Assembly (NCBI GenBank): GCA_964538145.1
Contig: CAZIEC010000003.1
Span: 21,368-53,963, forward strand
Source: an uncultured archaeon
GTDB lineage: Archaea > Asgardarchaeota > Lokiarchaeia > Sigyniarchaeales > SOKP01
Length of the DNA stretch: 32,596 nucleotides
Direction: 5' to 3'
Every line of letters begins with the position of its first letter. The stretch's first letter is position 1. The position numbers and the translations under genes are program-made. The notes under the pieces are model-generated. The model had not been told where the DNA came from. It saw only the letters and a program-made list of their open reading frames with translations, and searched no databases. Positions 966 through 26,936 of the stretch are shown in pieces.

Positions 966-2375
966 TTATCTTAATTGCCTGAATTCAGACGCTATTTTTT
1001 GGAGGCGATCAATCAATTCTTTTGTATTAGTACTTTTTTCAACTACTTGATTAAATTTTTCATCCAAATCATTGATTAATTTTATTAAATTATCTTCTGT
1101 AGAGTTAAAATTTGTTGATAAAGAATCTAAGATAACTTCATGAAATTCTTTAACTTTATTTTCGCAGGCTTTAACTTGTTCTCCATTAGAATTAATCTCT
1201 CCTTCAAGATTTCGAATTTTTTCACTGTTTTGATTGATCTTGGAAGAAATTGCATCTAAAATTCTCTCAAAGGTATTTGAAATTTTATCAAATTGACTGT
1301 TTATATCATCATTAATTTTCAAAAGCAAGGATTCTAATTCTGATTCAATGAACTTCCTATAATTTTCTTGTTCTTTCAGACTATTATCTAAAGATTCTGA
1401 AATGCTAGAAACAAAAACATTTGAAATTTCATTGAATTTTTTTTCAAAATAATTTTGTAATCCCTCTAATCCATTATTTATCGTGGTTTTTAATTGGTTT
1501 ATTGAACTTTTAAGATATCTACTCCCCTTAATACTCCCCTCTTCAACATCTATTAACCATTGTTCTAATTGTTTATTAAATGGTTGAGCAAAAGAATTTA
1601 CAAGAGCCATGGTACCATCTGTTATCCCCTTACTCAAAGATTGAATTTTATTTTCAATTTCTACGATATCTTGTTCAACCATTTCCTTTTTTTGTAAGGG
1701 AATCTCCTGTAAATCACCCTGAGATGGTTTTACATGTTCTCCATATTCATGGATAAGAATTTGATCTTTTCTTTGAATGCTCTCTACTAAATGTTGAACC
1801 CATTTAAAAAATTCTAAAGTTTTAGGAGGTTCTAATTGACAATTAATCTCAATTAATTCATCATGCTTGTTATGATCTTTAAATCGATATGCTTGAAAGG
1901 AAAATATGCTCTTTTTTTCAACTTTAATGGGATCAAAAGTTAAACAAAAAGCATTTGGAAAATTATCATTTTGGAAATATCTATGTATTTGAATATCTGC
2001 TGATGTAAGTTTCAAATCATATTTTGGGTGCGATATATACCAACCAATGATCCGTAATGATTCATTAGAATGTTCCATTTTAATTTTATCTAAAAGAGCT
2101 TCCAATTCTCTTGAAAGACCTAATTCAATATAGTCGCCATGGGTCAATGGAATACATTCTTTCACGATCAATACATTCTTCTCATTATTTTCTTGTTCTC
2201 CTAAACAAACTCCCATTGCTTCTACGGGGGTTTCTAAAAAAGAATTTCCAAATCTTAGAATGTGAAAGATCATTTTCTTAAATGCTTCTGGCTTTATTAT
2301 TATTTTATCCAAACTCTTTGTTGTTAAGCCTTTCTCTTTACTTTCATTAACTTGATCTTCTAAATTATTTTCCAT
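966..2375 (-). CDS. MPN- (degenerate JAMM) domain protein with a ~240-aa C-terminal helical/coiled-coil region
   Basis: The MPN scaffold is kept (E52 in PVEAMGVCLG; IIGWY-ISHP), but the canonical HxHx7Sx2D reads I114-S-H116-x7-T124-x2-D127 (nt 1995-2036). The first zinc-ligand His is therefore Ile and the Ser is Thr. Residues ~230-469 are K/E/N/S-rich and heptad-like. The ATG at 2375 directly abuts the TAA (2376-2378) of the upstream gene, and AGGAGGT lies 8 nt upstream. Confidence 0.85.
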   Translation of the reverse strand: MENNLEDQVNESKEKGLTTKSLDKIIIKPEAFKKMIFHILRFGNSFLETPVEAMGVCLGEQENNEKNVLIVKECIPLTHGDYIELGLSRELEALLDKIKMEHSNESLRIIGWYISHPKYDLKLTSADIQIHRYFQNDNFPNAFCLTFDPIKVEKKSIFSFQAYRFKDHNKHDELIEINCQLEPPKTLEFFKWVQHLVESIQRKDQILIHEYGEHVKPSQGDLQEIPLQKKEMVEQDIVEIENKIQSLSKGITDGTMALVNSFAQPFNKQLEQWLIDVEEGSIKGSRYLKSSINQLKTTINNGLEGLQNYFEKKFNEISNVFVSSISESLDNSLKEQENYRKFIESELESLLLKINDDINSQFDKISNTFERILDAISSKINQNSEKIRNLEGEINSNGEQVKACENKVKEFHEVILDSLSTNFNSTEDNLIKLINDLDEKFNQVVEKSTNTKELIDRLQKIASEFRQLR

Positions 2376-3863
2376 TTAATCGACCTCCTTTTCGAATTTC
2401 TTAATTTTTTGGCTAAGATTTTCATTTTCCTTTTTCAATTCCTTGATTTTAGCGATTAATTCTTCTCTTTCTTCTTCTAATGATTTAATCTTATTAAAAA
2501 TAGGTTCCTTAGTGCTCTCGATGATTAAAACAATAGCCTTAAGATCTTCAAATAATTTTCTCGTTTCTACATCAAATGCTTGTATTTCTTTATCAATTTT
2601 ATTGAAATATTTTGAAATATTTTGAACAAATTTATCACTGATTTTCGAAAAATCCTCTTGAATTTGAGATTTGACCCTTTCAAGTTCTTTGGTTAATTCT
2701 TGGAGGTTAGAACGGTTATTTTTGAGTAATTCAGAAACTTTTTCAAGATTATCGTTGTTATTATTGAATAGATTTAAAGATTCTTCAAATTTTTTAAAAA
2801 AATCATCTAATTTTTCTTCAAGTTTTTTGCTAAACGATTCCTTTAACAGATTTTTTAATTTATTAGAAAAATCTACGATATAATTCTTTGAATTATCTAT
2901 TTTTTCATTGTAAACGTCAAGTTTATCACTGATATAAAAATCTAAACTGTTCATTTTATCATGCAAGGAATAATTAAAGTTTTTTTGGATTTCCATCATG
3001 CTTTTACTTAAATTCAATTTTAATTGTACTAAATCTTCTCGTATATTCATGTTATTAATAAATACATTCTTCAATAACTTCTGGCTCCAGTTATTTAATA
3101 AGTCCATGAATGGATCTAATGAGTGCTTTAAGAATAGCGAAAATCCTTCTTGAAAAGATTTGATGATTGCTGTAGCAGAGAACTCTGGTTTTTTAACCAT
3201 CAAATCTTCTTTTTTTGGGATGTACAAATCTTCAAAAAAATCAGTTGTTTCATTCAATTCTAAAATAGGAGCTTCCCCAGTATAAAGGTTCTGAATTAAT
3301 TCAATTATTTTATTATAGAAATCAACATTATCAGGAGGTTCAACAATAGCTTTAACTTCATGATATCCTGACCCCCTGCTCTTTGTTGGATCATCTAGTC
3401 TAAATGCTCTAAACCCAGGATCTCCAGGGGTTTCTAACAAATTATGATCAAAAACTAAGCCAATACCACTTGGATTTTTGGCTTGCCAAAACAATTGGTT
3501 TTGCACGTCCGTGCCACTAAAGAAAGGCGTTAAATTGGGATGGCTATGATACCAACCACAACTAAACCATCCTTCATGACCGTGTTCTTCAAATACTTTA
3601 TTATCTATTTCTGCAAAAGCCCCCAATTGTTCTGGAGAATATCTCACCTCTATTGCTCCTCCATGTGATACCGGAATGGCATCTTCAATTATAAGAAATT
3701 TTTTTCCATCTTTTTCATCAATATGTCCGATTAATCCTCCCATTACTTCTTTACATTGTGTAGGATCTTTGACTTTAGATCCAAATCGAAGTACATGAAC
3801 GAGCATCTTGTAATAAGCTAGCGGTTTTACGATTACGGGTATATCTTCAGTATTCTTTGGCAT
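2376..3863 (-). CDS. MPN+ JAMM metalloisopeptidase-like protein with a ~270-aa C-terminal coiled-coil region
   Basis: Complete JAMM signature: E39 (CKEVMGGLIG) and GWYHSHPNLTPFFSGTD = H106-x-H108-x7-S116-x2-D119 (nt 3507-3548). The C-terminal half is a long K/E/N/L heptad-rich helical region ending ...EEREELIAKIKELKKENENLSQKIKKFEKEVD. Confidence 0.9.
   Translation of the reverse strand: MPKNTEDIPVIVKPLAYYKMLVHVLRFGSKVKDPTQCKEVMGGLIGHIDEKDGKKFLIIEDAIPVSHGGAIEVRYSPEQLGAFAEIDNKVFEEHGHEGWFSCGWYHSHPNLTPFFSGTDVQNQLFWQAKNPSGIGLVFDHNLLETPGDPGFRAFRLDDPTKSRGSGYHEVKAIVEPPDNVDFYNKIIELIQNLYTGEAPILELNETTDFFEDLYIPKKEDLMVKKPEFSATAIIKSFQEGFSLFLKHSLDPFMDLLNNWSQKLLKNVFINNMNIREDLVQLKLNLSKSMMEIQKNFNYSLHDKMNSLDFYISDKLDVYNEKIDNSKNYIVDFSNKLKNLLKESFSKKLEEKLDDFFKKFEESLNLFNNNNDNLEKVSELLKNNRSNLQELTKELERVKSQIQEDFSKISDKFVQNISKYFNKIDKEIQAFDVETRKLFEDLKAIVLIIESTKEPIFNKIKSLEEEREELIAKIKELKKENENLSQKIKKFEKEVD
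2383..2389 (-). promoter_or_regulatory. Shine-Dalgarno (AGGAGGT) for the MPN- gene, embedded in the 3' end of the MPN+ gene (translational coupling)
   Basis: Plus strand reads acctcct, so minus-strand sense reads AAGGAGGTCGATTAA-ATG. The stop codon of 2376..3863 is immediately followed by the start codon at 2375. Confidence 0.6.
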
Positions 3864-4182: not shown

Positions 4183-4848
4183 TTAAAATGGTAGAGGTTT
4201 ACCGCAATATGGGCAGAATTTCCAATTCAAATCTTTTCCACATGAAGGGCAAACTCTTGAATCAGTAGAAGGAGGTTCATATCCAGGTATTGGAGGTAAT
4301 TCTCGAGTAGGTCTTATAATTTTAACAGGTTTAGAAGGATGGGAGTGCGATACTGGAGTTGAGGAAGATGTAGTTCCAACTACTTCTTCTTTTTTTGCCA
4401 TCAATCTTTCTTTAAAGGCTTGACGCAAGTCTTCTTTACTCGTCATTCCTTCCTCTTTAACCCAACCAGAAACTTTTGGACGTTTCAATTCACTTTCAGG
4501 TACTTTTTCCAATACAACTTTTTTAGTTTCTGAGATTGGTGCCATGACCTTCTTTTGTTCCTTATTTTGAATTGCTTGCTTAATTAATGCTTGAGTTGTT
4601 TTCATTACTTGATGTGGATTAATGTTTGGGATTGCAACAGTTCTTAAAACCCATCCAACAATCATATTTTGATTGGGGAATCCAGACGATGTAATATCTT
4701 CATCTTTATACACGTACGAATCGATTACATTATTACCTTTTAATAATCTTGAAGCCCATTTACCATTTATAAGACCTAATTGGAGTCTATATGATGTCCC
4801 AGCAATTCCTAATTGGCTCGAGAGAGGCTCAAATCCTTTTTCTGACAT
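4183..4848 (-). CDS. Hypothetical protein: ~100-aa N-terminal globular domain, Lys/Glu/Pro-rich low-complexity linker, C-terminal CxxC-x8-CxxC zinc ribbon
   Basis: C-terminus is RVCPSCGKDLNWKFCPYCGKPLPF. The linker reads ...SSSTPVSHSHPSKPVKIIRPTRELPPIPGYEPPSTD. The N-terminal family is not recognised. Confidence 0.7.
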   Translation of the reverse strand: MSEKGFEPLSSQLGIAGTSYRLQLGLINGKWASRLLKGNNVIDSYVYKDEDITSSGFPNQNMIVGWVLRTVAIPNINPHQVMKTTQALIKQAIQNKEQKKVMAPISETKKVVLEKVPESELKRPKVSGWVKEEGMTSKEDLRQAFKERLMAKKEEVVGTTSSSTPVSHSHPSKPVKIIRPTRELPPIPGYEPPSTDSRVCPSCGKDLNWKFCPYCGKPLPF

Positions 4849-5005: not shown

Positions 5006-5956
5006 ATGACAGTCATCATACCAAAAAAAGCATATTTAACTATTGTAGCAGCAAGCGTTAGATTTGCCAATCAGAAAATTCCTAGAGATGATTGGTTGGA
5101 AGTTAGCGGAATATTTATAGGAAAAAACGAGGGAAATGATGTGATAATCTCGAAAGCTTATCCCATCATGCATCAAGAATTAGATAAAGATGCAGTTATC
5201 GATCAATATAAGTGGAGCGATGAAGACATGATAGTTGCATCTGAGATTGAATTAGAAGCTTATGAAAGAAATGAATTCATTGTAGGATGGTGGCATAGTC
5301 ATCCAGGTTTTAAAGTGATGATGAGTCATATAGATATTAAAACAACTCTTTCATATCAACAACACAATCCATTAGCAATTTCTTTAGTATTTAACCCTGA
5401 AAGATTATTACGTCAAATAGAATTACCCAATAAAAAAGGAGATCCTGTAAAGCAGTTAAAGAACGATCCTGGATTTAAAATTTTTAGATTAGATGATGTC
5501 TCCAAAGGAATTCAAGCATCATATCATGAAGTAGATTATAAGATTGAAGGGTATGACAGTTTAGACCAATTAGTAAAACTTACTCAAAAATTTATTATTG
5601 ACATTACGAATTTCTTTCCAAAAGATAATATCTATGAAGTTTATGAGAGCTTTATTGATGAAAGAATCAATAAATTAGAATCCATTCTGTTAGGTACTGA
5701 AGAATATCTAAAAACTTTAGCCCGAACGGGCGAATCACACAGAATTTCTGAAGTATTAGATAATCAAGTAAAAGAAATCAGAAAATATGTTGCTGAAACT
5801 TATATTAAAATCGAAAATATCAGAGAGTTCATGGATTACTTGGAATACAAGGAGAGAGATGCAGTCATTCCTAAGGTAAACGAAATATTGTTGAGATGGG
5901 ACGAAACCATATCAACATTAGATGAAAAAATTGAGAATTTAAAGAAAGTCGTTTAA
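5006..5956 (+). CDS. MPN+ JAMM metalloisopeptidase-like protein (316 aa) with a ~130-aa C-terminal helical region
   Basis: E32 (WLEVSGIFIG) and VGWWHSHPGFKVMMSHID = H97-x-H99-x7-S107-x2-D110 (nt 5294-5335). C-terminal helical segment reads ...LESILLGTEEYLKTLARTGE...STLDEKIENLKKVV. Confidence 0.9.
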   Translation: MTVIIPKKAYLTIVAASVRFANQKIPRDDWLEVSGIFIGKNEGNDVIISKAYPIMHQELDKDAVIDQYKWSDEDMIVASEIELEAYERNEFIVGWWHSHPGFKVMMSHIDIKTTLSYQQHNPLAISLVFNPERLLRQIELPNKKGDPVKQLKNDPGFKIFRLDDVSKGIQASYHEVDYKIEGYDSLDQLVKLTQKFIIDITNFFPKDNIYEVYESFIDERINKLESILLGTEEYLKTLARTGESHRISEVLDNQVKEIRKYVAETYIKIENIREFMDYLEYKERDAVIPKVNEILLRWDETISTLDEKIENLKKVV

Positions 5957-6112: not shown

Positions 6113-8320
6113 ATGAAAAAAATAAATTTTCCTTTTACAGCAATATTAGGTCAAGATAAAATGAAATTGGGGCTCATTCTCAACATCATAGACCCCCAAA
6201 TAGGAGGCATCTTATTAACGGGACAACAAGGAACGGGCAAATCTACTGCGGTTCGTTCTTTGGTCGATGTGATGCCAAAAATTGAAGTTGTTAAAGGATG
6301 CACTTTTTCTTGTGATCCAAAATCAGATTTAGAAGATTTATGTGAAGAATGTAGAGAAAAGAAAAAAAATAATAATTTAGAAATAATAACAAGAAAAATG
6401 CGAATTGTAAACCTTCCTTTAGGAGTTACTGAAGATATGGTCTGTGGTTCATTATCCATAGATAAGGTAATTAGTGAAGGGATCAAGAGCTTGCATCCTG
6501 GACTATTAGCAAAAGCAAATAGGGGAATACTCTATGTGGATGAAATAAATTTATTACAAGATCATATTGTCGATGTTCTTTTAGATGCTGCTGCTTCTGG
6601 GGTAAATATTATAGAAAGAGAGGGGATTTCTGTATCACATCCTTCTCGTTTTGTTTTAGTAGGGAGCATGAATCCAGAGGAAGGTGATCTTAGGCCTCAA
6701 ATAGCTGATCGCCTTGGATTAGAAGTAAAAATCGAAGCTCCTCGTGATCCTAAATTGAGAGCAGAAATTACAAAACGAGTTATTGAATTCAATGATAATC
6801 CAAAAGAATTCATTAAAAGATTTGAAAAGGAGCAAGAAATATTAAGAGATAAAATAGTTCGAGCTAGACAAATTTTAAAACAAGTAGAGATTCCCGCAAC
6901 GGTTTATGAATTTGTATCAATGATTGTAAATGAGTTAGGAATCTTTTCTCAGCGAGCAGATATTACTTTTATTAGATGTGCCCGGGCTCATGCTGCATTT
7001 AATGGGAGAACTCACATAGAGGAAGAAGACTTGAATGTTGCTTTAGATTTAGTTTTTGAACACCGCATCCAATCACTCCATTATGAAATGACTCCAGAAG
7101 AAATTAAAGGAAAGATCACGGAAGTATATGGAAAAATTCAGAAAGCATATGAAGATCCTAAAGCATATCAACCAAATAGGGAAACTGAAGGTCCAATGAA
7201 ATATGATGATACGCCTCAAAAAGAATTTAAAAGGCAATCAATAGATCCCAAGAAAGTATCGATCCCAGAAACTAAAGAACAAAAATTGCCCCCTCCTAAA
7301 TATCCTGATAACAAAAAGAGAACTCCCGAACCAGCTGGAGGATGGAAAGTTAAAGACATCCCTCGTGAGGAAATTGATTTTAATTTCTTTAAAAACAACC
7401 TCAACACGGCGATGCCTTTAATTTACAAGATGGAAAAAAAGATGACTTCAATTTTAGACAATATTAGAAAGGATAGGAAAGTTTCTGATTATGGTGGAAG
7501 GGGAATTGGGAGAAGAATAAAAATCGCTTCAAGCCAAAAAGGAAGATATGTTTCTTATAGAGCGCCATTAAATCGTCCAAAAAGCTTAGCTTTAGATGCA
7601 ACAATAAGAAATTTTTTGAAAAATACAATCTACAATCGAACAGATTTAAAGTTTCCATTAAAATTTGATAAATATGATTTAATGGATAAAATCTATGAAT
7701 ACAGGGCTCCATTAGTTCTATTTTTCGTGTTAGACAGCTCGGCATCAATGTACTATGTCATAAAGCAGATGACGGATGTAATAATGTCTTTACAAAAAGA
7801 AGGTTATAGAAAAAAAGATAAAATCAGCTTGATAATCTTTAGAGGTAAGGAAGCAATAGTTTTGCAGAAGCCTACAGTTAATTTTAAGAGTGCCATAGGA
7901 AAACTTAAGAAAATTGAAGGGAGATCATACACACCAATGGCTGCGGCATTAAAAAAATGCATGAAACTGATTGAAGCTGAAAAACTTAAAAATAGAAATG
8001 TTATTCCAGTTATTTTCATATGTTCTGATTGTGGTGCTAATATTTCTGTAAAATATCCAGATCTAATAGCTCAAGTTCAAAGTGATTATAAATTAATCAT
8101 CAATGAATTAAAAGAGTTGACAAAATCTCTAAATAAAAAGGGAGTTCACATAGTTGTTCTTGAACCAAAGAAAAGCTATGCTACAAGGGCTCTCGGTGTA
8201 AACACATTTGCGGCTGATCAAATTAAAAAGAATTTTAAAACTTATGCTAAAGCTGAAATTTTTCAATTTGATAGATATAACCCTAAAAGTTTAATACTTG
8301 AATTAAAAAAGATCTTATAA
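6113..8320 (+). CDS. Fused ChlI/BchI-type AAA+ ATPase plus Pro-rich linker plus ChlD-type vWA (MIDAS) domain protein
   Basis: The N-terminus FPFTAILGQDKMKLGLILNIIDPQIGGILLTGQQGTGKST is the classic ChlI/BchI opening, with Walker A at nt 6221-6247. Cys-rich insert CTFSCDP...LCEEC; Walker B GILYVDEINLL; linker ...KLPPPKYPDNKKRTPEPAGG. The vWA MIDAS is LFFVLDSSASM (D541-S-S-A-S, nt 7733-7747), plus downstream YTPM and SDCGAN. Confidence 0.9.
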   Translation: MKKINFPFTAILGQDKMKLGLILNIIDPQIGGILLTGQQGTGKSTAVRSLVDVMPKIEVVKGCTFSCDPKSDLEDLCEECREKKKNNNLEIITRKMRIVNLPLGVTEDMVCGSLSIDKVISEGIKSLHPGLLAKANRGILYVDEINLLQDHIVDVLLDAAASGVNIIEREGISVSHPSRFVLVGSMNPEEGDLRPQIADRLGLEVKIEAPRDPKLRAEITKRVIEFNDNPKEFIKRFEKEQEILRDKIVRARQILKQVEIPATVYEFVSMIVNELGIFSQRADITFIRCARAHAAFNGRTHIEEEDLNVALDLVFEHRIQSLHYEMTPEEIKGKITEVYGKIQKAYEDPKAYQPNRETEGPMKYDDTPQKEFKRQSIDPKKVSIPETKEQKLPPPKYPDNKKRTPEPAGGWKVKDIPREEIDFNFFKNNLNTAMPLIYKMEKKMTSILDNIRKDRKVSDYGGRGIGRRIKIASSQKGRYVSYRAPLNRPKSLALDATIRNFLKNTIYNRTDLKFPLKFDKYDLMDKIYEYRAPLVLFFVLDSSASMYYVIKQMTDVIMSLQKEGYRKKDKISLIIFRGKEAIVLQKPTVNFKSAIGKLKKIEGRSYTPMAAALKKCMKLIEAEKLKNRNVIPVIFICSDCGANISVKYPDLIAQVQSDYKLIINELKELTKSLNKKGVHIVVLEPKKSYATRALGVNTFAADQIKKNFKTYAKAEIFQFDRYNPKSLILELKKIL

Positions 8321-8359: not shown

Positions 8360-9616
8360 ATGAGTGATAAAAAATCAATTTTGGTCTTGGGTTTTAACAC
8401 GCGTCCATTAGCATTTTCATTAAAGCAATCAGGATTTGATGTTTACGTGGTTGATTTTTTTGGAGATATTGACTTATTTCCTTACGTGAAGGATTCAATC
8501 ATCATTACAGAAAGATTAAATTCCAATTATGAAGCTCTTAAAGAGGATTTTGACATTTATCTCATTAACTTCGGTTTAGAAATGCTTAAAAAATACCCTA
8601 ATATAGATTATTTCCTTATTGGGAGTGGATTAGACGATGCAATCAATGAAAGAAGAGTTTTTGAAGAAAAAATTAATGAATTAGGTCTTAAAATAAAAAA
8701 TACAAACAATGATCTAAAAATAATTGAAAAGGCAAGAGACATAAATCTTATCCATAAAATCTTAAAAGAGAATGATTTTCCAGTACCATTAACATGCAAC
8801 TTAGAAAACGTGGATGATTTATCCTTTGATTTTACCTTTCCAATCATTCTAAAAAAGAAACATAGTTCTGGAGGCATTAGTATTAAGAAAATAAAAAATA
8901 GGACCGAATTAAAGGAAGAAAAATGGAAAATGATTAAGAATAAGATAAATTTAAGTGATTGGTTAGTCCAAGAATATATCGAGGGAATTCCTGTTAGTTG
9001 TACTTTCATTTCAAATGGTATCAAATCAGAAATAATTTCGATTAATCAACAATTAATTGGAGAAAAAGTTTCAAACCCTCCTTCTAACTTTTTTTACTGT
9101 GGAAATGTAGTACCTGCAAAAATTTCAAAAAAAGATAAAGATTTAATTACCAAAATATCATTAAGATTAGCTTCTGAATTAGGATTGAAAGGTATAAACG
9201 GGATAGACTATGTTTTAAGAGATCATGATCCTTTTTTTATGGAAATTAATCCTCGAATTCCAGGATCAATAAGAGCATCTGAGTGTAGCTTGAATATAAA
9301 TTTATTAGATCTACACGTAAAAAGTTTTGAAACTTTTAAATGGAAAAACATAGTTAATCATCTAAAATCAATTTCTAAAATTGAATATGCAACTAAATTA
9401 ATCATGTATGCTTCCAAAGACTTAAATGAGCTCCACTTAGAACAAATTAATAATTTAAAAAATGTACACGACAAAACACTTCCGCAAAAAGGAGCTAAAA
9501 AGGGGGATCCTGTTTGTACTATTTTAAACGTGGATGATGATCATGATAGTTCATATAAGGGAGCTTTAAAAATAGCAAATAAAATCAATTTGATAATGAA
9601 TGAGTCCTCATACTAA
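8360..9616 (+). CDS. ATP-grasp superfamily ligase (predicted carboligase/peptide ligase, COG2232-like)
   Basis: Rossmann-like pre-ATP-grasp N-terminus (ILVLGFNTRPLAFSLKQSGFDVYVVDFFGD). ATP-binding Lys plus Gly loop (PIILKKKHSSGGISI). WLVQEYIEG, and the catalytic FFMEINPRIPGS motif. Confidence 0.8.
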   Translation: MSDKKSILVLGFNTRPLAFSLKQSGFDVYVVDFFGDIDLFPYVKDSIIITERLNSNYEALKEDFDIYLINFGLEMLKKYPNIDYFLIGSGLDDAINERRVFEEKINELGLKIKNTNNDLKIIEKARDINLIHKILKENDFPVPLTCNLENVDDLSFDFTFPIILKKKHSSGGISIKKIKNRTELKEEKWKMIKNKINLSDWLVQEYIEGIPVSCTFISNGIKSEIISINQQLIGEKVSNPPSNFFYCGNVVPAKISKKDKDLITKISLRLASELGLKGINGIDYVLRDHDPFFMEINPRIPGSIRASECSLNINLLDLHVKSFETFKWKNIVNHLKSISKIEYATKLIMYASKDLNELHLEQINNLKNVHDKTLPQKGAKKGDPVCTILNVDDDHDSSYKGALKIANKINLIMNESSY

Positions 9617-10342
9617 AATTGATTTTATTTTCGCTACATAACTACCTAATTTTCTCTCATCTGCCTCTGGAACTGCTATTGCCAAAATTCTGTTATTATC
9701 TAGTTTATGTATTATAATTGAACCGTTTTCCCCTCCAATAATTGAATATTCAAGTTCTTCATCTAGTAAAACGGCAGCTAAGTTGTAGATAGCAGATATC
9801 ATTGCCGACAATATTGGTTCTGGCATGGTTGCTTGTACTTTAATAGGCAAACCTTCTTTAGTGATAATGGCTATTACTAAAGCGTTTGGAATTGCCCTTT
9901 TTAATGCAACAAAAATCTCTTCCTTAATTAAATCAGAGGTTTCTACGATTGCTGATAATTGAATAGCTAGATTTTTTAATGAATTGATGTAAGAATCTAA
10001 ACCTTCAAGTTCCGCAAGTTCTCTATTAAGATAAGCGATTAAAGTTATATTTTCTGTAAGAATGGAAAGAATTAGGTTGTTCTTACCAGTTACTAAATTA
10101 TAAGAAATTTGTTGATTTAATGAATCTAAGAGAATTTTAGAAGATAAAAATATTAAGCTGCTACTGGCTGCTGATATTTCAGTTTTTGTTAATTTAATAT
10201 TTCCTTTAAAAATACTTGCTAAATGGGTGCCTCCATGTGTCGATACAGTAATCCCTAAAATTCCTGAATTGGTCTCTAACTTTTTAGATATAAGATTCTT
10301 GAGATCATCTTCTAATCGAGTAATATTCTTTTCTGGCACCAT
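9608..10342 (-). CDS. Tandem Roadblock/LC7 (MglB-like) domain protein
   Basis: 244 aa forming two ~115-aa halves. Each has the Roadblock-like pattern helix, then GILGITVSTHGGTHLAS / ALVIAIITKEGLPIKVQ strands, helix, three strands and helix. Assignment is by pattern only. The 3' end overlaps the ATP-grasp gene convergently by 9 nt. Confidence 0.65.
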   Translation of the reverse strand: MVPEKNITRLEDDLKNLISKKLETNSGILGITVSTHGGTHLASIFKGNIKLTKTEISAASSSLIFLSSKILLDSLNQQISYNLVTGKNNLILSILTENITLIAYLNRELAELEGLDSYINSLKNLAIQLSAIVETSDLIKEEIFVALKRAIPNALVIAIITKEGLPIKVQATMPEPILSAMISAIYNLAAVLLDEELEYSIIGGENGSIIIHKLDNNRILAIAVPEADERKLGSYVAKIKSILV

Positions 10343-10618: not shown

Positions 10619-11596
10619 ATGAGTCAAGATAATAATCCCGAAGCATCATTAAGAGCAAAATTGGAAATGAGAGAAAAGCAACTCATTGATTTTCAAGAAG
10701 AACTTAAGGAAAAAAATGATTATATTGAATTATTAAAAAAGTCTTTAGAGAAATTTGAAGATAAAGTGAAACAGATAAAGTTTTTTGACGAGCAATTGAA
10801 AGTAAAGGATGACCTCATAAATAATCTTCAAAATTCTTTAAAATTAAAGGATGATCAAATTAATACACTAAAAGATTCTCTAAAATTAAAAGATGAGCAA
10901 ATTGAAACGCTTGAAAATTCTCTTTCAATAAAAGAAGAAAAAATAGAAACTCTTGAAAAAACAATAAAACTCAAGGAGGAAAAAATTAAGCAACTTGAAG
11001 AATCGACCATAGACAAGGATTTATTTGAAGAAAAAGATGAAGAAATTAAAAAATTAAAGGAAAAATTAGAAATATTAAAAGAAGAATTAGAAAAAGCAGA
11101 TGAAGATTTAGAAGCATTGGAAAAAGAAAATGAAGTTCTAAGAAATCAACTAGCCGCAGCATCGGGAGCAAAAATTATTGATTGGACGAATGTGGAAATA
11201 CCTAAATCGTTAATTCTTGAAAAAATGCGTGAAATCCTTAACGAAGCCGTACACAATGTCACGATTGCCGTTCCGGATATAAAAGATTTACAAGAATTAC
11301 ACTTATATGACTTGAGATCTTCTGTAAGCATGAAAGTTTCTTGCTCTCTAAATCCTGGTTTAGAAGAAGATGCAGAATTATTAGAGGAATTGGAGAGTTT
11401 GGATAATATCTCCATTAGATTGTATGAAGGACAAGATAGGTACTTGATTGAGAGAGATGGAGAGGAATTAATGTTCGCAATAATTGGTAATGAAGAAAAT
11501 AACCATTTAGTATTACATACTCGGGATCCCAAGCATTTAAAACTACTAAGATCTTTAGTCATGGAAAGCTGGCTCAGATCTAGGAAAATTGAATGA
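10619..11596 (+). CDS. Coiled-coil protein with five 14-residue tandem repeats and a C-terminal ~140-aa globular domain
   Basis: Residues 1-180 are almost pure K/E/L heptads. The C-terminal part (IIDWTNVEIP...ISIRLYEGQDRYLIERDGEELMFAI...LVMESWLRSRKIE) has mixed alpha/beta character and no recognised family. Confidence 0.75.
   Translation: MSQDNNPEASLRAKLEMREKQLIDFQEELKEKNDYIELLKKSLEKFEDKVKQIKFFDEQLKVKDDLINNLQNSLKLKDDQINTLKDSLKLKDEQIETLENSLSIKEEKIETLEKTIKLKEEKIKQLEESTIDKDLFEEKDEEIKKLKEKLEILKEELEKADEDLEALEKENEVLRNQLAAASGAKIIDWTNVEIPKSLILEKMREILNEAVHNVTIAVPDIKDLQELHLYDLRSSVSMKVSCSLNPGLEEDAELLEELESLDNISIRLYEGQDRYLIERDGEELMFAIIGNEENNHLVLHTRDPKHLKLLRSLVMESWLRSRKIE
10796..11005 (+). repeat. 5 x 42-nt in-frame tandem repeat (14-aa units LK[LV]KD[DE]QI.TL..S)
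   Basis: Units read LKVKDDLINNLQNS / LKLKDDQINTLKDS / LKLKDEQIETLENS / LSIKEEKIETLEKT / IKLKEEKIKQLEES. Unit starts at 10796 and 10964 were verified to be 4 x 42 nt apart. Confidence 0.8.
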
Positions 11597-13654: not shown

Positions 13655-16600
13655 ATGCAGAATTTGGAAACTAAATCTATAAATAACCATTTAAATTTCT
13701 TAGAAACTCCAGAAAGCCTTGTATTCTTGATTGGTGCGGGATGTTCTTCAATTGAACCATCTAATGCACCAATTGGGAGAAAAATAATAGAAACGCTTAT
13801 AAAGTTCTTTTTAAATAAATCTGAAGTAAAAAAAATATTATCAATTGAGAATATTAAATTAGAAAAAACTTTAAGTGTTCTACAAGAAGTATTTGATGAG
13901 AATTTGAAAATAATTGAATACTTTAATGAGTTTACTAACCCTAATTTAGTGCATTTTTTCATTGCAAGAATGTTAAAAGAAGGAAGCTTGGTAATGACAA
14001 CTAATTTTGATCCTCTAATAGAACTTGCTTTATTAAGAGATGGAGTACCAAAAAAGAAAATCATTCCACTAATAACTAAAAGAGATTTTGATAAAGTAAA
14101 AAATGTAGAAAATTATATTAAAACCAAGCGTTATCTAATTGGAAAGATTCACGGTTCGCCTAAAAATTTCATAACAGGAGCCAATACTAAGAAAGAATTA
14201 GTTAAAACCATAAAGGTTTTGGGAAATGCTGAAAAAAATAAGGGTCTTTTTCAATTAGAACCATTTAAAGCCCGATTTTTAGATTCAGCCACAAAAGAAC
14301 GCTCCCTTATTGTAATGGGTTATTCTGGACGAAATGATGATGATATTATTCCTACAATAAAAGCTCTCTCAGGATTAAAAGAAATTTTTTGGATCAATCA
14401 TGTCGAAGAAAAAAAGGAAATAGAAGAAGTTATAGAGATACGTAAAAAGAATTTATCTCAAGCTAATAAACTGGATGATATAGACAATATTTTATTAGAA
14501 ATAAAAGAATTTAATGAAAAATTAAAGATTTTCAGAGTAAATATCAATATTTTAGAATTGATAAAGAAACATGTAGATAAAGAAATTGAAATCAAACCTG
14601 ATGAAAATTTTATTGACTATGAAACATGGTTAACAGAAAATTTTAATGATAAAATTGATGAAAAAGAGCAATTACAAGCCGCAGGAATGATTTACTCTAA
14701 ATTTGGACAACATTATGACGCGATCAGGTGTTTTGATGAATTATTTAATGTGGCATCTGAGGAAAAAGATTCAAAATGGCAAGTCATAGCAGCATTAAAT
14801 AAAGGTTTAATATACGCAAAAGCATCTGATTTTGATAATACGAGAGAATGGTTAAGAAGATCTCTTGAGTTGCAATTTAAGTCTAAGCTTTTAAGCGAGA
14901 GAGCAGTTATATTTAAAGAATTAGGGTTATTATATGAGAATAAAGGAGATTTAGACAAGGCTCTTTTATATTTAAGGGAAGCTACTAAAATAGCCGAAAA
15001 ATTAAATGATCCATCAATAAAGGCTGAGATGTTAAATCAATTAGGATTAATCTATTTAAAAAAGAATGAATACCAGAGAGCCTTGAATATTTTCAACCTT
15101 TCCTTTAAAATTAATGATAAACTTAAGAACTTACAAGAAAAAGCAAATAATTTGGCTAATATGGGAAAGGTTTTTAGTGAAAAGGGCAATTTTCAAAAAG
15201 CTTTAGAATTTTTTAAAGAAGCATTAGCAATTAATGAGAAAATTAAAAATAAACAAGAAGTAGCTCGACTGAAAAATGAAATTGGATTTGTAGAACATCT
15301 TTTAGGTAATTCATTAACAGCATTAGAAGAATGTAAAAGCTCTTTATCAATATGTGAAAGTATTAATGATACAATGGGAAAAATGAAAGCATTGTATAAT
15401 ATTGGAAGAATTTACATGGATCAATGGAATTATTTAAGAGCTCATGAATTTTTTGAAGAAGCTTTTCAATTAGCTGAAGAAAGTGAAGATAAAAAGATGC
15501 AAGCCGTATTAACAACTCAAATTGGATTAATTTATAAATTACAAGATAAATATTTGGATGCTCTTGAGTGGCTTACTAGAGCTAATAATTTTTATAAAGA
15601 ATTAGGGGATTTAGATAGCAGGATTGAGGTATTGAAGAACACTTGCTTAATTTATAAGCAGCAAAAGGATTATGATAAAGCATTAAATTGTTTTCAAAAA
15701 ATCTTATCACTTTTAGAGGAGTCTAAAAATAAAAATGCAATCATTCAGTATTTAAACATCATTGGTCAAATTTATTTAGAACAGAGAATGTTCAATAAAT
15801 CTCTTGAATATTTTCAAAAAGCTCTTGAAATTTCAGATGATATTGCTGATTTAAAGGGTATGCTTGAATCAATAATAAATATTGGTCTATATTATCAAGA
15901 GCAAGTAAATTATTCTGAAGCTCTAAATCGATATAAAGATGCCTTGGAAATAGCAAATAGATTAAAGTTAAATAATAAAAAAGCAAAAGTATTGAATAAA
16001 ATGGGTTCAATATTTCAAGATCAAGGAGAATATAACAAGGCACTCAAAAATTTCGAAGAAGCTCTCTCATTATTTACTCAAGAAAATGACTTTAAAGGGA
16101 GAATCGAAAGTCTTTATCTTATAGGGTTGAATTATTATTATGAAAGTAAATATGACTCTGCAATTAAAAATCTACAAACAGCGATTCAAATTGCCGATCA
16201 AATTGGAGATTTGCGCGAAAAAGCAACTTGTTTAAATATTCTTGGAGAAATATTTAAAAATCAATGGAACTTTCTTGAATCCCTAAAATATTACGAAGAA
16301 AGCTTATTAATTGCTGAAGAGTTAAATGATCCTCAAAAACAATTGAGCATTTTAAAAGTAATTGGAGAAATTTACAAATTGCAGAAACATTATCCAGAAG
16401 CTTTAAGAAATTTTGGTAAAGCTTTAGAAATTGCAGAAAGAGAAGGCGATTTAATGAAAAAGTCAGATATTCTGAATTCAATTGGGCTCATATATTTTGA
16501 CGAAGAAGATTTGGCAAAAGCACTTTCTTTATTTCAAGAAGCTCTTGAGATTGATGAAAAACTTGGGGATTTAAAAGGAAAAGCCGAAAGGCTCATCAAT

Positions 16601-17713
16601 AAAGGAAATGTTTATTTTAATTGGAGGCAATATGAAAAAGCAATTGAATATTTTCATCAAGCAAGGAAAATTCAAGACCAATTGGATAATCCAAGTGGAT
16701 TGGCAAACATTCTCGAGAAGATTGGGCTATTATATTTTGAAAAACACGAATATGATGACGCAATTAATTATCTTAAGCAAGCATTAGAATTATTCGAAAT
16801 GATCGATAATGTAGAAAGTGTTATTGATTGTAAAATAATTCTTGGTAAAATTCATCAGGAACAATTCCAATATTCTGTTGCTACAAAATACTTTCAAGAG
16901 GCTCTGAAATTAGCTTCAAGTATTAATGATCAAAACCGTAAAGGAACTTCATTATTCAAGATTGCTTCAATATTGCAAGAACAAGGAATATACAAGGATG
17001 CATTGATTCATTATAACAATGCTTATGAAATCTTTGATTCATTAGGGGATATTACGAATAAAACAAATTGTTTAAGTAGAGTAGGATTAATATTTCAAGA
17101 TCAAGGAAAATATACTGAAGCTTTAAGATGGTACGAACGTTCGATGAAATTCTATCAATTTCTTGGAGAATCAAGAGAGATGGAAGAAACTTACTTTAAT
17201 ATGGCAATGATTTATAGAGATCAAGAAAAATATTTCGACTCTTTAAAATTATTTGATAGAGCTCTAAAAATTTCTGAAAAAATTGGCGATTCTAAATTAA
17301 AAGCTGAAATATTGAACATGATTGGATTGATCTATATAAATATAGGAGATTATGAGATAGCAAGAGAAAGATTGGAAAATGCTTTAAAAATTGCTGAAGA
17401 ATTAAATGACCAGGTGAAGATCGCTCAATACAACAGTAATTTGGGGCTAATAGATTTAAATAATGGAGATTATGCTGAAGCTTGGATAAAATTCGAATTG
17501 GCCTTAACTATATATAAAAACCTTAATAATATTGAAGGAATGGCAGATTCGCTTTACAAGCAAGGATTAACTTATTATGAACAAAAGAGTTATATCGAGG
17601 CACTAAATAAACACAAAGAAGCCCTACAAATCTTGGTTAAGAATAAATTTCAAAAACATCCATTAGTGAAAGTACTTAAAAATAATATAAAATTGATTAA
17701 AAGCCGGATATGA
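13655..17713 (+). CDS. SIR2_2-type (sirtuin-like, predicted NAD+-consuming) N-terminal domain fused to a ~1000-aa TPR-like solenoid
   Basis: SIR2_2 landmarks: LVFLIGAGCS (Rossmann GAG, res 27-29), MTTNFDPLIE (N117, nt 14003-14005), GKIHGS (H166, nt 14150-14152), VMGYSGRNDDDI. No P-loop lies between this domain and the repeats. Residues ~336-1335 are 25 consecutive 40-residue TPR-like units. Confidence 0.9.
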   Translation: MQNLETKSINNHLNFLETPESLVFLIGAGCSSIEPSNAPIGRKIIETLIKFFLNKSEVKKILSIENIKLEKTLSVLQEVFDENLKIIEYFNEFTNPNLVHFFIARMLKEGSLVMTTNFDPLIELALLRDGVPKKKIIPLITKRDFDKVKNVENYIKTKRYLIGKIHGSPKNFITGANTKKELVKTIKVLGNAEKNKGLFQLEPFKARFLDSATKERSLIVMGYSGRNDDDIIPTIKALSGLKEIFWINHVEEKKEIEEVIEIRKKNLSQANKLDDIDNILLEIKEFNEKLKIFRVNINILELIKKHVDKEIEIKPDENFIDYETWLTENFNDKIDEKEQLQAAGMIYSKFGQHYDAIRCFDELFNVASEEKDSKWQVIAALNKGLIYAKASDFDNTREWLRRSLELQFKSKLLSERAVIFKELGLLYENKGDLDKALLYLREATKIAEKLNDPSIKAEMLNQLGLIYLKKNEYQRALNIFNLSFKINDKLKNLQEKANNLANMGKVFSEKGNFQKALEFFKEALAINEKIKNKQEVARLKNEIGFVEHLLGNSLTALEECKSSLSICESINDTMGKMKALYNIGRIYMDQWNYLRAHEFFEEAFQLAEESEDKKMQAVLTTQIGLIYKLQDKYLDALEWLTRANNFYKELGDLDSRIEVLKNTCLIYKQQKDYDKALNCFQKILSLLEESKNKNAIIQYLNIIGQIYLEQRMFNKSLEYFQKALEISDDIADLKGMLESIINIGLYYQEQVNYSEALNRYKDALEIANRLKLNNKKAKVLNKMGSIFQDQGEYNKALKNFEEALSLFTQENDFKGRIESLYLIGLNYYYESKYDSAIKNLQTAIQIADQIGDLREKATCLNILGEIFKNQWNFLESLKYYEESLLIAEELNDPQKQLSILKVIGEIYKLQKHYPEALRNFGKALEIAEREGDLMKKSDILNSIGLIYFDEEDLAKALSLFQEALEIDEKLGDLKGKAERLINKGNVYFNWRQYEKAIEYFHQARKIQDQLDNPSGLANILEKIGLLYFEKHEYDDAINYLKQALELFEMIDNVESVIDCKIILGKIHQEQFQYSVATKYFQEALKLASSINDQNRKGTSLFKIASILQEQGIYKDALIHYNNAYEIFDSLGDITNKTNCLSRVGLIFQDQGKYTEALRWYERSMKFYQFLGESREMEETYFNMAMIYRDQEKYFDSLKLFDRALKISEKIGDSKLKAEILNMIGLIYINIGDYEIARERLENALKIAEELNDQVKIAQYNSNLGLIDLNNGDYAEAWIKFELALTIYKNLNNIEGMADSLYKQGLTYYEQKSYIEALNKHKEALQILVKNKFQKHPLVKVLKNNIKLIKSRI
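14660..17659 (+). repeat. 25 x 120-nt (40-aa) in-frame TPR-like repeat array, with no indels between units
   Basis: Consensus by eye is K...LN.IGLIY..QG.Y..AL..F..AL.I.E.LGD... Example units: KAEMLNQLGLIYLKKNEYQRALNIFNLSFKINDKLKNLQE, KANNLANMGKVFSEKGNFQKALEFFKEALAINEKIKNKQE ... MADSLYKQGLTYYEQKSYIEALNKHKEALQILVKNKFQKH. The units are diverged at the DNA level. Confidence 0.85.
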
Positions 17714-26225: not shown

Positions 26226-26936
26226 TTATTCATTTATAAATTTCTCATTATTAATCTTCTTATCCAGGATGGTAAGATCTTCTTCTATTTTTTCTGTTGG
26301 AGCGGTACCGTTACCATATATCTGGTATAAAACAGTTCGCCTAGCACATTCATAGAAACTGCGATAAATATTTTTATTTTTTCCATAAATTGCACATGTT
26401 TTATAAATAATGGGATTCCATAAATGCAAATTATTATTAGAATCGAACCATAATTTTTCTTTTTTTAAAATTTGAATGAAATCCTCTTCATCAATGACAT
26501 CATCCAAATCTTGCTTATTAAGCATTACTACAAATGGAAGCTTAACTATCAAGGAGTCTTTAGCAACTTTTTTCAATTCTAATAAAGATTCGATATTATC
26601 TTCTAAATATTTAGTTTGAGAATCCACTACAAAAATAACTGAATCTGCACCCTCAAATATACGTGCTCTTAAGGGAGAGAAACTTGATTGCCCTGCAACA
26701 GTAAATACACGATAATATACTTTTTTTTGTTCCTTAGATTGAAAGATCCCTCTATCAAAATATAGTGTTGCTCCACTTGTCTTGGAGATTTTTTGAAGTT
26801 CTCCTATAGGAACGATTTCTTTCTTGTTTTCTTTAGTGATCTTGTATAACGTGTCTAAAATTGTGGTTTTCCCGGAACCTCCCATTCCCCAATAAACTAT
26901 CTTTAGATAAACATTTCCATTCTTGTAAAGTACCAT
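26226..26936 (-). CDS. MglA-like small Ras-superfamily GTPase
   Basis: G1 GMGGSGKTT (nt 26865-26888). G3 reads T79-V-A-G-Q83 (nt 26688-26702), the TxxGQ variant typical of the MglA family instead of DxxGQ. G4 is NKQD (res 140-143); G5-like is KTCAI. ~50-aa C-terminal extension. Confidence 0.85.
   Translation of the reverse strand: MVLYKNGNVYLKIVYWGMGGSGKTTILDTLYKITKENKKEIVPIGELQKISKTSGATLYFDRGIFQSKEQKKVYYRVFTVAGQSSFSPLRARIFEGADSVIFVVDSQTKYLEDNIESLLELKKVAKDSLIVKLPFVVMLNKQDLDDVIDEEDFIQILKKEKLWFDSNNNLHLWNPIIYKTCAIYGKNKNIYRSFYECARRTVLYQIYGNGTAPTEKIEEDLTILDKKINNEKFINE

Follow-up and report, generated by a model that had tools for sequence, protein, structure and literature searches.

The 32.6-kb window analysed here (the whole stretch of 32,596 nucleotides (nt) from contig CAZIEC010000003.1 of an uncultured archaeon of the class Lokiarchaeia) contains two abutting genes, A and B (Table 1), whose products each consist of an MPN domain and a long helical tail, with an intact JAMM active site in A and a degenerate one in B. 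Together, A and B probably form the two subunits of a Lokiarchaeota-specific complex of paralogous MPN+ and MPN- proteins, in which A would act as a zinc-dependent JAMM isopeptidase and B as its non-catalytic partner. The combination of an active MPN enzyme with a dead paralogue is treated as a hallmark of eukaryotic complexes, namely the proteasome lid, the COP9 signalosome, eIF3 and BRISC. The window is AT-rich (~28% G+C), and the closest database proteins to those encoded in it come from Promethearchaeota, the current NCBI name for the Lokiarchaeota phylum of the Asgard kingdom.

JAB domains were assigned with the eukaryote-type Pfam model PF01398 at its curated cut-off of 22.5 bits, which is exceeded by A (43.7 bits), B (52.6 bits) and a third MPN protein of the window, C (52.4 bits); B also matches the Pfam family UPF0172 (44 bits). 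A first-pass annotation, made from the letters of the window, had described a complete JAMM site in the upstream gene and a downstream gene that begins on the nucleotide after its stop codon, with a Shine-Dalgarno sequence of its own, and both descriptions stand. The motif E...H-x-H-x7-S-x2-D of A is formed by E39, H106, H108, S116 and D119, and the TAA codon of A is followed without a gap by the ATG codon of B, in the same reading frame and with AAGGAGGT located 7 nt 5' of this ATG. GGAGG-like strings occur at the matching place in most of the orthologous junctions. At the junction of the window (2383-2399, minus strand), as in the orthologous ones, the GGAGG of B is written by the codons of the conserved C-terminal '...EKGGE' of A, and therefore the protein sequence and the translation signal are constrained jointly.

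In the corresponding columns B exhibits E52, I114, H116, T124 and D127 (pattern EIHTD), i.e. the Glu, the second His and the Asp are retained, while the first zinc-ligand His is replaced by Ile and the Ser by Thr, as originally annotated; gene B of the window thus lacks a complete JAMM zinc site (I114, T124). Both substitutions recur in P0001, a protein of another, independent assembly that shares 99% identity, and hence they are not sequencing errors. The EHHSD signature is found in 51 of 52 orthologues of A (the remaining one has a gap where the Glu should be) and in 36 of 37 orthologues of C. Among the 53 orthologues of B, the site is intact in 10, among them that of CP070805, and in 43 not all five residues match; the family as a whole shows 21 different residue patterns, including EIRTT, ELRTT, ELHSG, EHRSD, QCHVD, NRSND and QHHSD with a 1-amino acid (aa) insertion; 40 of the 53 proteins (19 patterns) have lost one or more of the four residues comprising the general-base Glu, the two His and the Asp, and an intact HxH element is present in 26. 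The question raised by the first-pass annotation, whether Ile114 and Thr124 are shared by the orthologues, is therefore answered in the negative. The same annotation had reasoned that orthologues with an intact HxH would make Ile114 a strain-specific change or an error; such orthologues do exist, but a strain-specific change or error is ruled out by P0001 and by the 40 B proteins devoid of key residues. The small proportion of intact sites and the variety of patterns indicate that B is a decaying pseudo-enzyme paralogue, whose active site, apparently no longer needed, seems to have decayed repeatedly and independently. In one clade (L001:4544-5998, L003:3041-4495, L037, L038, L040, L041 and L042) A carries a 3-residue insertion in the JAMM motif, with the resulting spacing H-x-H-x10-S-x2-D (HSHPNLFQHKIFFSPTD), and B exhibits Gln in place of the catalytic Glu together with a 1-residue insertion, both partners being altered near the active site.

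The conservation of the pair was analysed by scanning one genome per species, which yielded 80 loci, in which the open reading frames (ORFs) were called and their products classified with our own profile hidden Markov models. For the adjacency count we considered the window and 44 species-representative loci with full-length A, 43 of which include enough downstream sequence. An orthologue of B follows the orthologue of A in 43/43 of these loci, in one of them after a 6-kb insertion: L049:11450-17495 is the only locus with A and B apart, separated by ~6 kb of AT-rich DNA with several ORFs. For 49 of the 51 pairs, the distance between the stop codon of A and the start codon of B falls between -11 and +15 nt, and the final codons of A usually contain GGAGG; the two genes are almost always coupled in translation, and the expectation that they are neighbours across genomes is confirmed. 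A word-indexed protein search with A revealed more than 230 relatives (the 120 listed are 41-57% identical over essentially full length), and a search with B only 9, or 14 when a 26-sequence profile was used, because B is much more divergent. The orthologues of B were recovered from the DNA adjoining the orthologues of A, where every A turned out to be followed by a second, far more divergent JAB gene (440-470 aa). The reading frame of B is intact (440-471 aa) in all 53 sequences from ~50 species, and no variation was seen at H38, G55, P76, H79, G111, Y113, P184, L222, Q223, I225, P226 and L458, which are spread over the MPN domain and the tail. The few loci labelled as Hod-, Hermod-, Odin-, Thor- or Heimdallarchaeota encode proteins that nest inside the Loki-type clades, and these labels should be taken cautiously.

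Comparison of the family profiles of A and B with hhalign revealed a match with E=4e-66 over 436 columns, including the tails; B lacks one A-specific segment near the C-terminus and otherwise matches A over its full length. The tails, originally described as alike in composition, are thus homologous. In a neighbour-joining tree restricted to archaeal sequences, A (n=51) and B (n=51) are each monophyletic and branch as mirror images of each other; next to the two clades lies L051, the pair with the greatest divergence, and single-copy relatives, including those from Sigynarchaeum and from a bin labelled Bathyarchaeota, fall outside the duplication. The mean pairwise identity of the MPN domains is 44% in B vs 64% in A, that of the tails is 29% in B and 34% in A, and the pairwise distances within the two families correlate with r=0.95. 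The pair therefore traces back to a single duplication, within Lokiarchaeota, of an entire gene for an MPN domain with its tail, and the MPN domain of B evolves faster than that of A. Since A and B form two mirrored clades derived from one duplication inside this phylum, the pair most probably parallels the eukaryotic pairs and is neither their orthologue nor their ancestor, a view that rests on A and B being nearest relatives of each other. B was not found to be orthologous to any of the eukaryotic MPN- subunits (Rpn8, CSN6, eIF3f/h or Abraxas), its closest relative being A. Thus, of the proposed prokaryotic counterpart of a eukaryote-style active/inactive pair, the paralogous pair with homologous helical tails is retained, but not the relationship by descent.

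The structure of A was modelled with AlphaFold2 (AF2), using 117 homologous sequences (mean predicted local distance difference test score (pLDDT) 75.8, predicted template modelling score (pTM) 0.41, as expected for an extended shape). A Foldseek search with A, a comparison of the kind proposed by the first-pass annotation, identified in the PDB the chains of BRCC36 as the best matches (E 1.5e-11 to 2.4e-9, ~290 aligned columns, which reach the start of the helix), followed by Rpn11, CSN5 and the MPN subunits of eIF3, which match the MPN domain. BRCC36 is also the nearest solved relative of A by sequence (phmmer, 3.4e-8), while the best PDB matches are the MPN+ Rpn11 chains for B (6.7e-6) and CSN5 and the Caldiarchaeum Rpn11 homologue for C. 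In the linker between the MPN domain and the tail of A, E202, N204, E205 and P216 are invariant in the 117 sequences and F210 is nearly so, and this poorly modelled region may be a contact segment that becomes ordered only in the complex.

The family-averaged hydrophobic period of the tails is 3.62 residues in A and 3.64 in B, i.e. 11/3, vs 3.5 for a heptad. Arranged in rows of eleven, both tails follow the '#...#...#..' register for ~8-10 consecutive rows with minor slips, and then drift; strong hydrophobics occupy ~33-35% of the positions in both. Such a narrow seam on a nearly straight helix agrees better with a long hendecad rod of paired helices than with a broad face for lipid binding. 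Bundling of the tails would be compatible with the single long helix of A in the AF2 model and with the homology, collinearity and narrow hydrophobic seam of the two tails. Near its end the tail of A exhibits a motif of its own, DLKAAIL.LE.SK.P (~440-454), followed by a terminal heptad-like helix; L441, K442, A443 and K458 are invariant. No known domain was identified in the tails above threshold in Pfam, NCBIfam or PADLOC, and the idea that they might be explained by an unrelated known domain is not borne out; the matches to IFT57, apolipoprotein, SMC, ZorA and LmuB were rejected as sub-threshold coiled-coil noise. Two proteins of 684-685 aa, from outside the A/B duplication (L056:6176-8230 and L058:6660-8717), contain one MPN+ head and apparently two tail modules, the second of which is weakly detected (E=7e-5); this composition gives a faint hint that the tails may act in pairs.

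Combination of these data suggests the following mechanism, in which we infer the physical heterodimer, the parallel pairing of the tails, the activity of A and its substrate. Coupled, roughly equimolar synthesis of A and B would follow from the direct contact of stop and start codon and from the Shine-Dalgarno sequence located inside A. The two MPN heads would pair as in BRCC36-Abraxas or Rpn11-Rpn8, with catalysis supplied by A as a predicted zinc-dependent JAMM isopeptidase, while B, a full-length duplicate of A with its active site freed from selection, would be retained as a structural or regulatory partner. The collinear homologous tails of 220-260 residues could zip in parallel into a nearly straight two-stranded rod, for which helix geometry predicts a length of 30-38 nm, and the additional C-terminal motif and terminal zipper of A would remain unpaired and available for docking or for the formation of larger assemblies. 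As to the substrate, a ubiquitin-like or another C-terminally linked protein tag is most likely, which is the weakest step of this proposal.

Table 1. Features of the window discussed in the text (position 1 is the first letter of the window)
Feature	Position	Strand	Description
Gene A	2376-3863	minus	495 aa; MPN+ (JAMM), predicted catalytic subunit
A MPN domain	3279-3863	minus	residues 1-195; beta-barrel and helices of the MPN fold (AF2)
A linker	3159-3278	minus	residues 196-235; motif PILELNET..F..IP; pLDDT <50 in the monomer model, with low confidence over residues 200-238
A tail	2385-3158	minus	residues 236-493; one predicted helix of ~258 residues, pLDDT 75-90; hendecad repeat
Shine-Dalgarno-like AAGGAGGT for B	2383-2390	minus	within the final codons of A; visible in the sequence itself
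Gene B	966-2375	minus	469 aa; MPN paralogue with degenerate active site, predicted non-catalytic partner
B helical tail	969-1643	minus	residues 245-469; hendecad repeat; aligns column by column with the A tail
S92	657-926	plus	small conserved protein, 89 aa; convergent, just after B
Zn protein	4183-4848	minus	upstream of A; 95-aa N-terminal domain, disordered linker with conserved short motifs, C-terminal zinc ribbon
Gene C	5006-5956	plus	316 aa; third MPN+ protein, at 1.1 kb upstream of A; leads the divergent operon
AAA+ (ChlI-like)/vWA fusion	6113-8320	plus	735 aa; second gene of the divergent operon; Pfam Mg_chelatase, AAA_lid_2, VWA_2
ATP-grasp_3 ligase	8360-9616	plus	418 aa; third gene of the divergent operon; Pfam PF02655 (1e-29)

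The pair, as recognised by the first-pass annotation, is accompanied by the third MPN+ gene and belongs to a larger conserved cluster, and this wider setting had been missed. Among the loci with enough flanking sequence, the Zn protein is found upstream of A in 40/41, C in 34/39, the AAA+/vWA fusion in 30/37, the ATP-grasp ligase in 26/33 and S92 downstream of B in 40/42. C exhibits an intact HSHP...S..D site and a helical tail of its own (~130 aa); it shares with A only the MPN domain (35% identity over 165 columns), and homology of its tail to those of A and B was rejected, as only the MPN domains align. The AAA+/vWA protein matches the NCBIfam model TIGR02442 ('putative cobaltochelatase') with 592 bits vs the cut-off of 779, and BchI-ChlI with 402 bits; no CobN-like partner was seen nearby. 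The ATP-grasp ligase matches no NCBIfam model at its cut-off. S92 has a very conserved core, VVILSSYKINSVLRE.YGVDIKVDRIGR, and its sole family match is a weak one to DUF5797 (E=0.003).

In the Zn protein the zinc ribbon is the only domain detected by Pfam. The AF2 model of its highly conserved N-terminal domain (pLDDT 85.5, pTM 0.73) comprises 3-4 beta strands and two helices. This confident model has no fold match in the PDB with E<0.05, for which reason a ubiquitin-like or ubiquitin-binding fold was rejected, and it is not a beta-grasp. Among 1.84 billion representative proteins, all scanned with HMMER, 96 relatives of the N-terminal domain were identified at E<=1e-10. It is fused behind small Ras/Rab-like GTPases in P0147, P0160 and P0221, forms tandem repeats in P0137 and P0138, and in P0152 is joined to a coiled coil and to the same C-terminal domain as in the 325-aa coiled-coil protein of the window (10619-11596, plus strand), which provides a Rosetta-stone-type link between two window genes located ~6 kb apart.

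No SAMP gene was found in the neighbourhood of the pair, no PCI domain was found among the scanned ORFs of the window or the neighbours in three annotated loci (a result whose scope is the neighbourhood and not whole genomes), and the cluster matches no known defence system in PADLOC. Elsewhere in the genomes, L083:9884-11473 and ~25 further loci (L059-L087) encode a further Lokiarchaeota family of MPN+ proteins (505-573 aa), extended at the N-terminus by an acidic stretch and with TPR-like helical repeats in the C-terminal region. The window also contains other genes of the Asgard 'eukaryote-like' type, coding for a Roadblock/LC7 protein (9608-10342, minus strand), an Arf-family small GTPase (26226-26936, minus strand) and a 1352-aa protein with SIR2_2 and TPRs (13655-17713, plus strand).

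Several observations weigh against the proposed heterodimer of an active A and an inactive B. Mirrored trees and correlated distances are expected for any two co-inherited genes, and therefore they are no proof of contact, and the model of A is that of a monomer, which cannot by its nature reveal an interface. The conserved C-terminal motif of A is missing from B in the profile alignment, so a part of the A tail must do something else, and the length of A varies from 481 to 613 aa via C-terminal extensions that are not mirrored in B. Genes for ubiquitin-like, E1, E2 or RING proteins were found neither in the window nor within 10 kb in three annotated loci (L005-L007). Because the JAMM motif is complete in 10 of the 53 B proteins and three more deviate only by the Ser to Thr replacement, B may still be active in some lineages, and there is one subclade with a complete motif. 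The intact sites are also consistent with the view that A and B are mere tandem paralogues, each acting alone or as a homo-oligomer, in which B would have a separate non-catalytic role, e.g. in binding a tag without cleaving it, and the adjacency would result from tandem duplication and shared regulation. The Caldiarchaeum Rpn11 homologue indeed crystallises as a homodimer (PMC6043591), and the existence of single-copy relatives without a partner (L053, L055 and L057) implies that the ancestral protein worked without B. Nevertheless, we regard independent action as somewhat unlikely, as the universal adjacency and the overlapping or nearly abutting codons would be hard to keep without a need for stoichiometry among loci whose A proteins are only ~38-57% identical to that of the window, and the tail architecture and hendecad register of B have been kept while its site decayed, which is the pattern expected of a structural partner. 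Could B simply be a functionless duplicate on the way to a pseudogene? The repeated loss of active-site residues and the faster evolution of B would agree with such a fate, but the frame is intact in 53/53 sequences, invariant positions occur in head and tail alike, the context of the start codon is maintained and the window allele recurs in an independent assembly, so this explanation is extremely improbable and effectively refuted by the conservation data.

Or perhaps the tails are surface-binding amphipathic helices of the 11-mer type known from apolipoproteins, perilipins and synucleins, which remain unpaired and lay the MPN heads on a membrane or lipid? A period of 3.62-3.64 instead of 3.5, the single unbroken helix predicted by AF2 for A, and faint Pfam Apolipoprotein matches of B and its orthologues could be read in this way, as could the weak matches of A to apolipoprotein A-I in the PDB (E ~1e-3), which also count against a rod, because 11-residue amphipathic repeats occur in lipid-binding proteins as well. 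However, all apolipoprotein matches fall far under the family cut-offs, the seam covers only 3-4 positions in 11, with about one third strong hydrophobics, and suits a helix-helix core better, and the invariant polar and aromatic tail residues W259, R275 and Q293 suggest specific protein contacts. Lipid binding by unpaired tails is thus quite improbable, and lipid binding as such would be compatible with heterodimerisation. Another view enlarges the frame: the products of the entire cluster (C, AAA+/vWA, ATP-grasp, Zn, A, B and S92) would make up a machine in which the pair is one module. In this scheme a peptide or protein tag would be added by the ATP-grasp ligase and taken off by the MPN+ proteins, with the AAA+/vWA protein remodelling the target, independently of canonical ubiquitin. 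This may be entertained tentatively: the divergent arrangement recurs in most species-representative loci, the AAA+/vWA protein falls under the trusted cut-off for cobaltochelatases and has no CobN-like partner in sight, and no gene for ubiquitin, E1 or E2 is located nearby. On the other hand, the C-AAA+/vWA-ATP-grasp unit lies apart from the pair or is absent within 10 kb in L038, L046, L047 and L050, synteny within a single phylum can persist by inheritance even between functionally unconnected genes, the chelatase-like protein might have no role beyond cofactor biosynthesis, and neither a fusion nor any other direct link to A or B was found. In its boldest form, which we regard as unlikely, the cluster would represent a previously unrecognised protein-modification or remodelling machine of Lokiarchaeota, composed of the A-B rod, a third MPN+ enzyme, a ChlI/ChlD-type AAA+/vWA motor, an ATP-grasp ligase and a Zn adaptor, and using a tag other than canonical ubiquitin; its AAA+ motor, vWA domain and MPN+/MPN- pair would together be an independently evolved functional analogue of the proteasome lid and base with Rpn10, or of BRISC with MERIT40.

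Among the known systems, the predicted A-B complex is most reminiscent of BRCC36-Abraxas and BRCC36-KIAA0157, the cores of BRCA1-A and BRISC, which likewise combine an MPN+ enzyme with a paralogous MPN- pseudo-enzyme, both with C-terminal helices. According to the literature (PMC4579573), the MPN- partner is essential for the activity of BRCC36. The archaeal pair differs in that its tails are ~5 times longer and follow a hendecad and not a heptad register, that A has its closest relative in B, and B in A, both having arisen inside Lokiarchaeota, and that no UEV (BRE-like) or E2-like domain was detected in the cluster, where the only vWA domain is fused to a chelatase (ChlI)-type AAA+; moreover, A-B is known here from sequences and a model of A, and its heterodimer and activity are predicted. 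Rpn11-Rpn8, CSN5-CSN6 and eIF3f-eIF3h are also pairs of active and inactive MPN paralogues, and Rpn11 is the best solved match of B, but their tails are short helices in a multi-subunit bundle, as opposed to the predicted 250-residue rod of A-B, which has no PCI-domain subunits in its neighbourhood and probably goes back to an independent duplication. The stand-alone JAMMs of archaea, i.e. the Caldiarchaeum CsRpn11 and the desampylase-type JAMM1, share the MPN+ catalytic domain, and CsRpn11 is among the PDB matches of A, B and C. These proteins are compact and have no dead paralogue, unlike A-B with its dead paralogue, long tails and no ubiquitin-system neighbours; CsRpn11 adjoins an operon of ubiquitin, E1, E2 and E3 genes (PMC6043591). 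The 2018 paper of Fuchs et al. states that the organisation of MPN proteins in active/inactive pairs is not known in archaea (PMC6043591), and full-text searches of the literature on MPN/JAMM proteins of Asgard archaea and Lokiarchaeota revealed no description of the A-B pair or of the cluster, in agreement with the initial impression that the system had not been described.

The comparative evidence for the pair is solid and the parallel to eukaryotes is notable, while the key physical claim, the association of A with B, is one that we infer. A conserved and translationally coupled pair of this kind would mean that archaea related to the eukaryotes can evolve the MPN+/MPN- architecture on their own. 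Its B orthologues, which range from an intact site to the loss of four of the five residues, provide a natural series for the evolution of a pseudo-enzyme partner, and the predicted hendecad rod of ~250 residues on MPN heads would be a new structural element.

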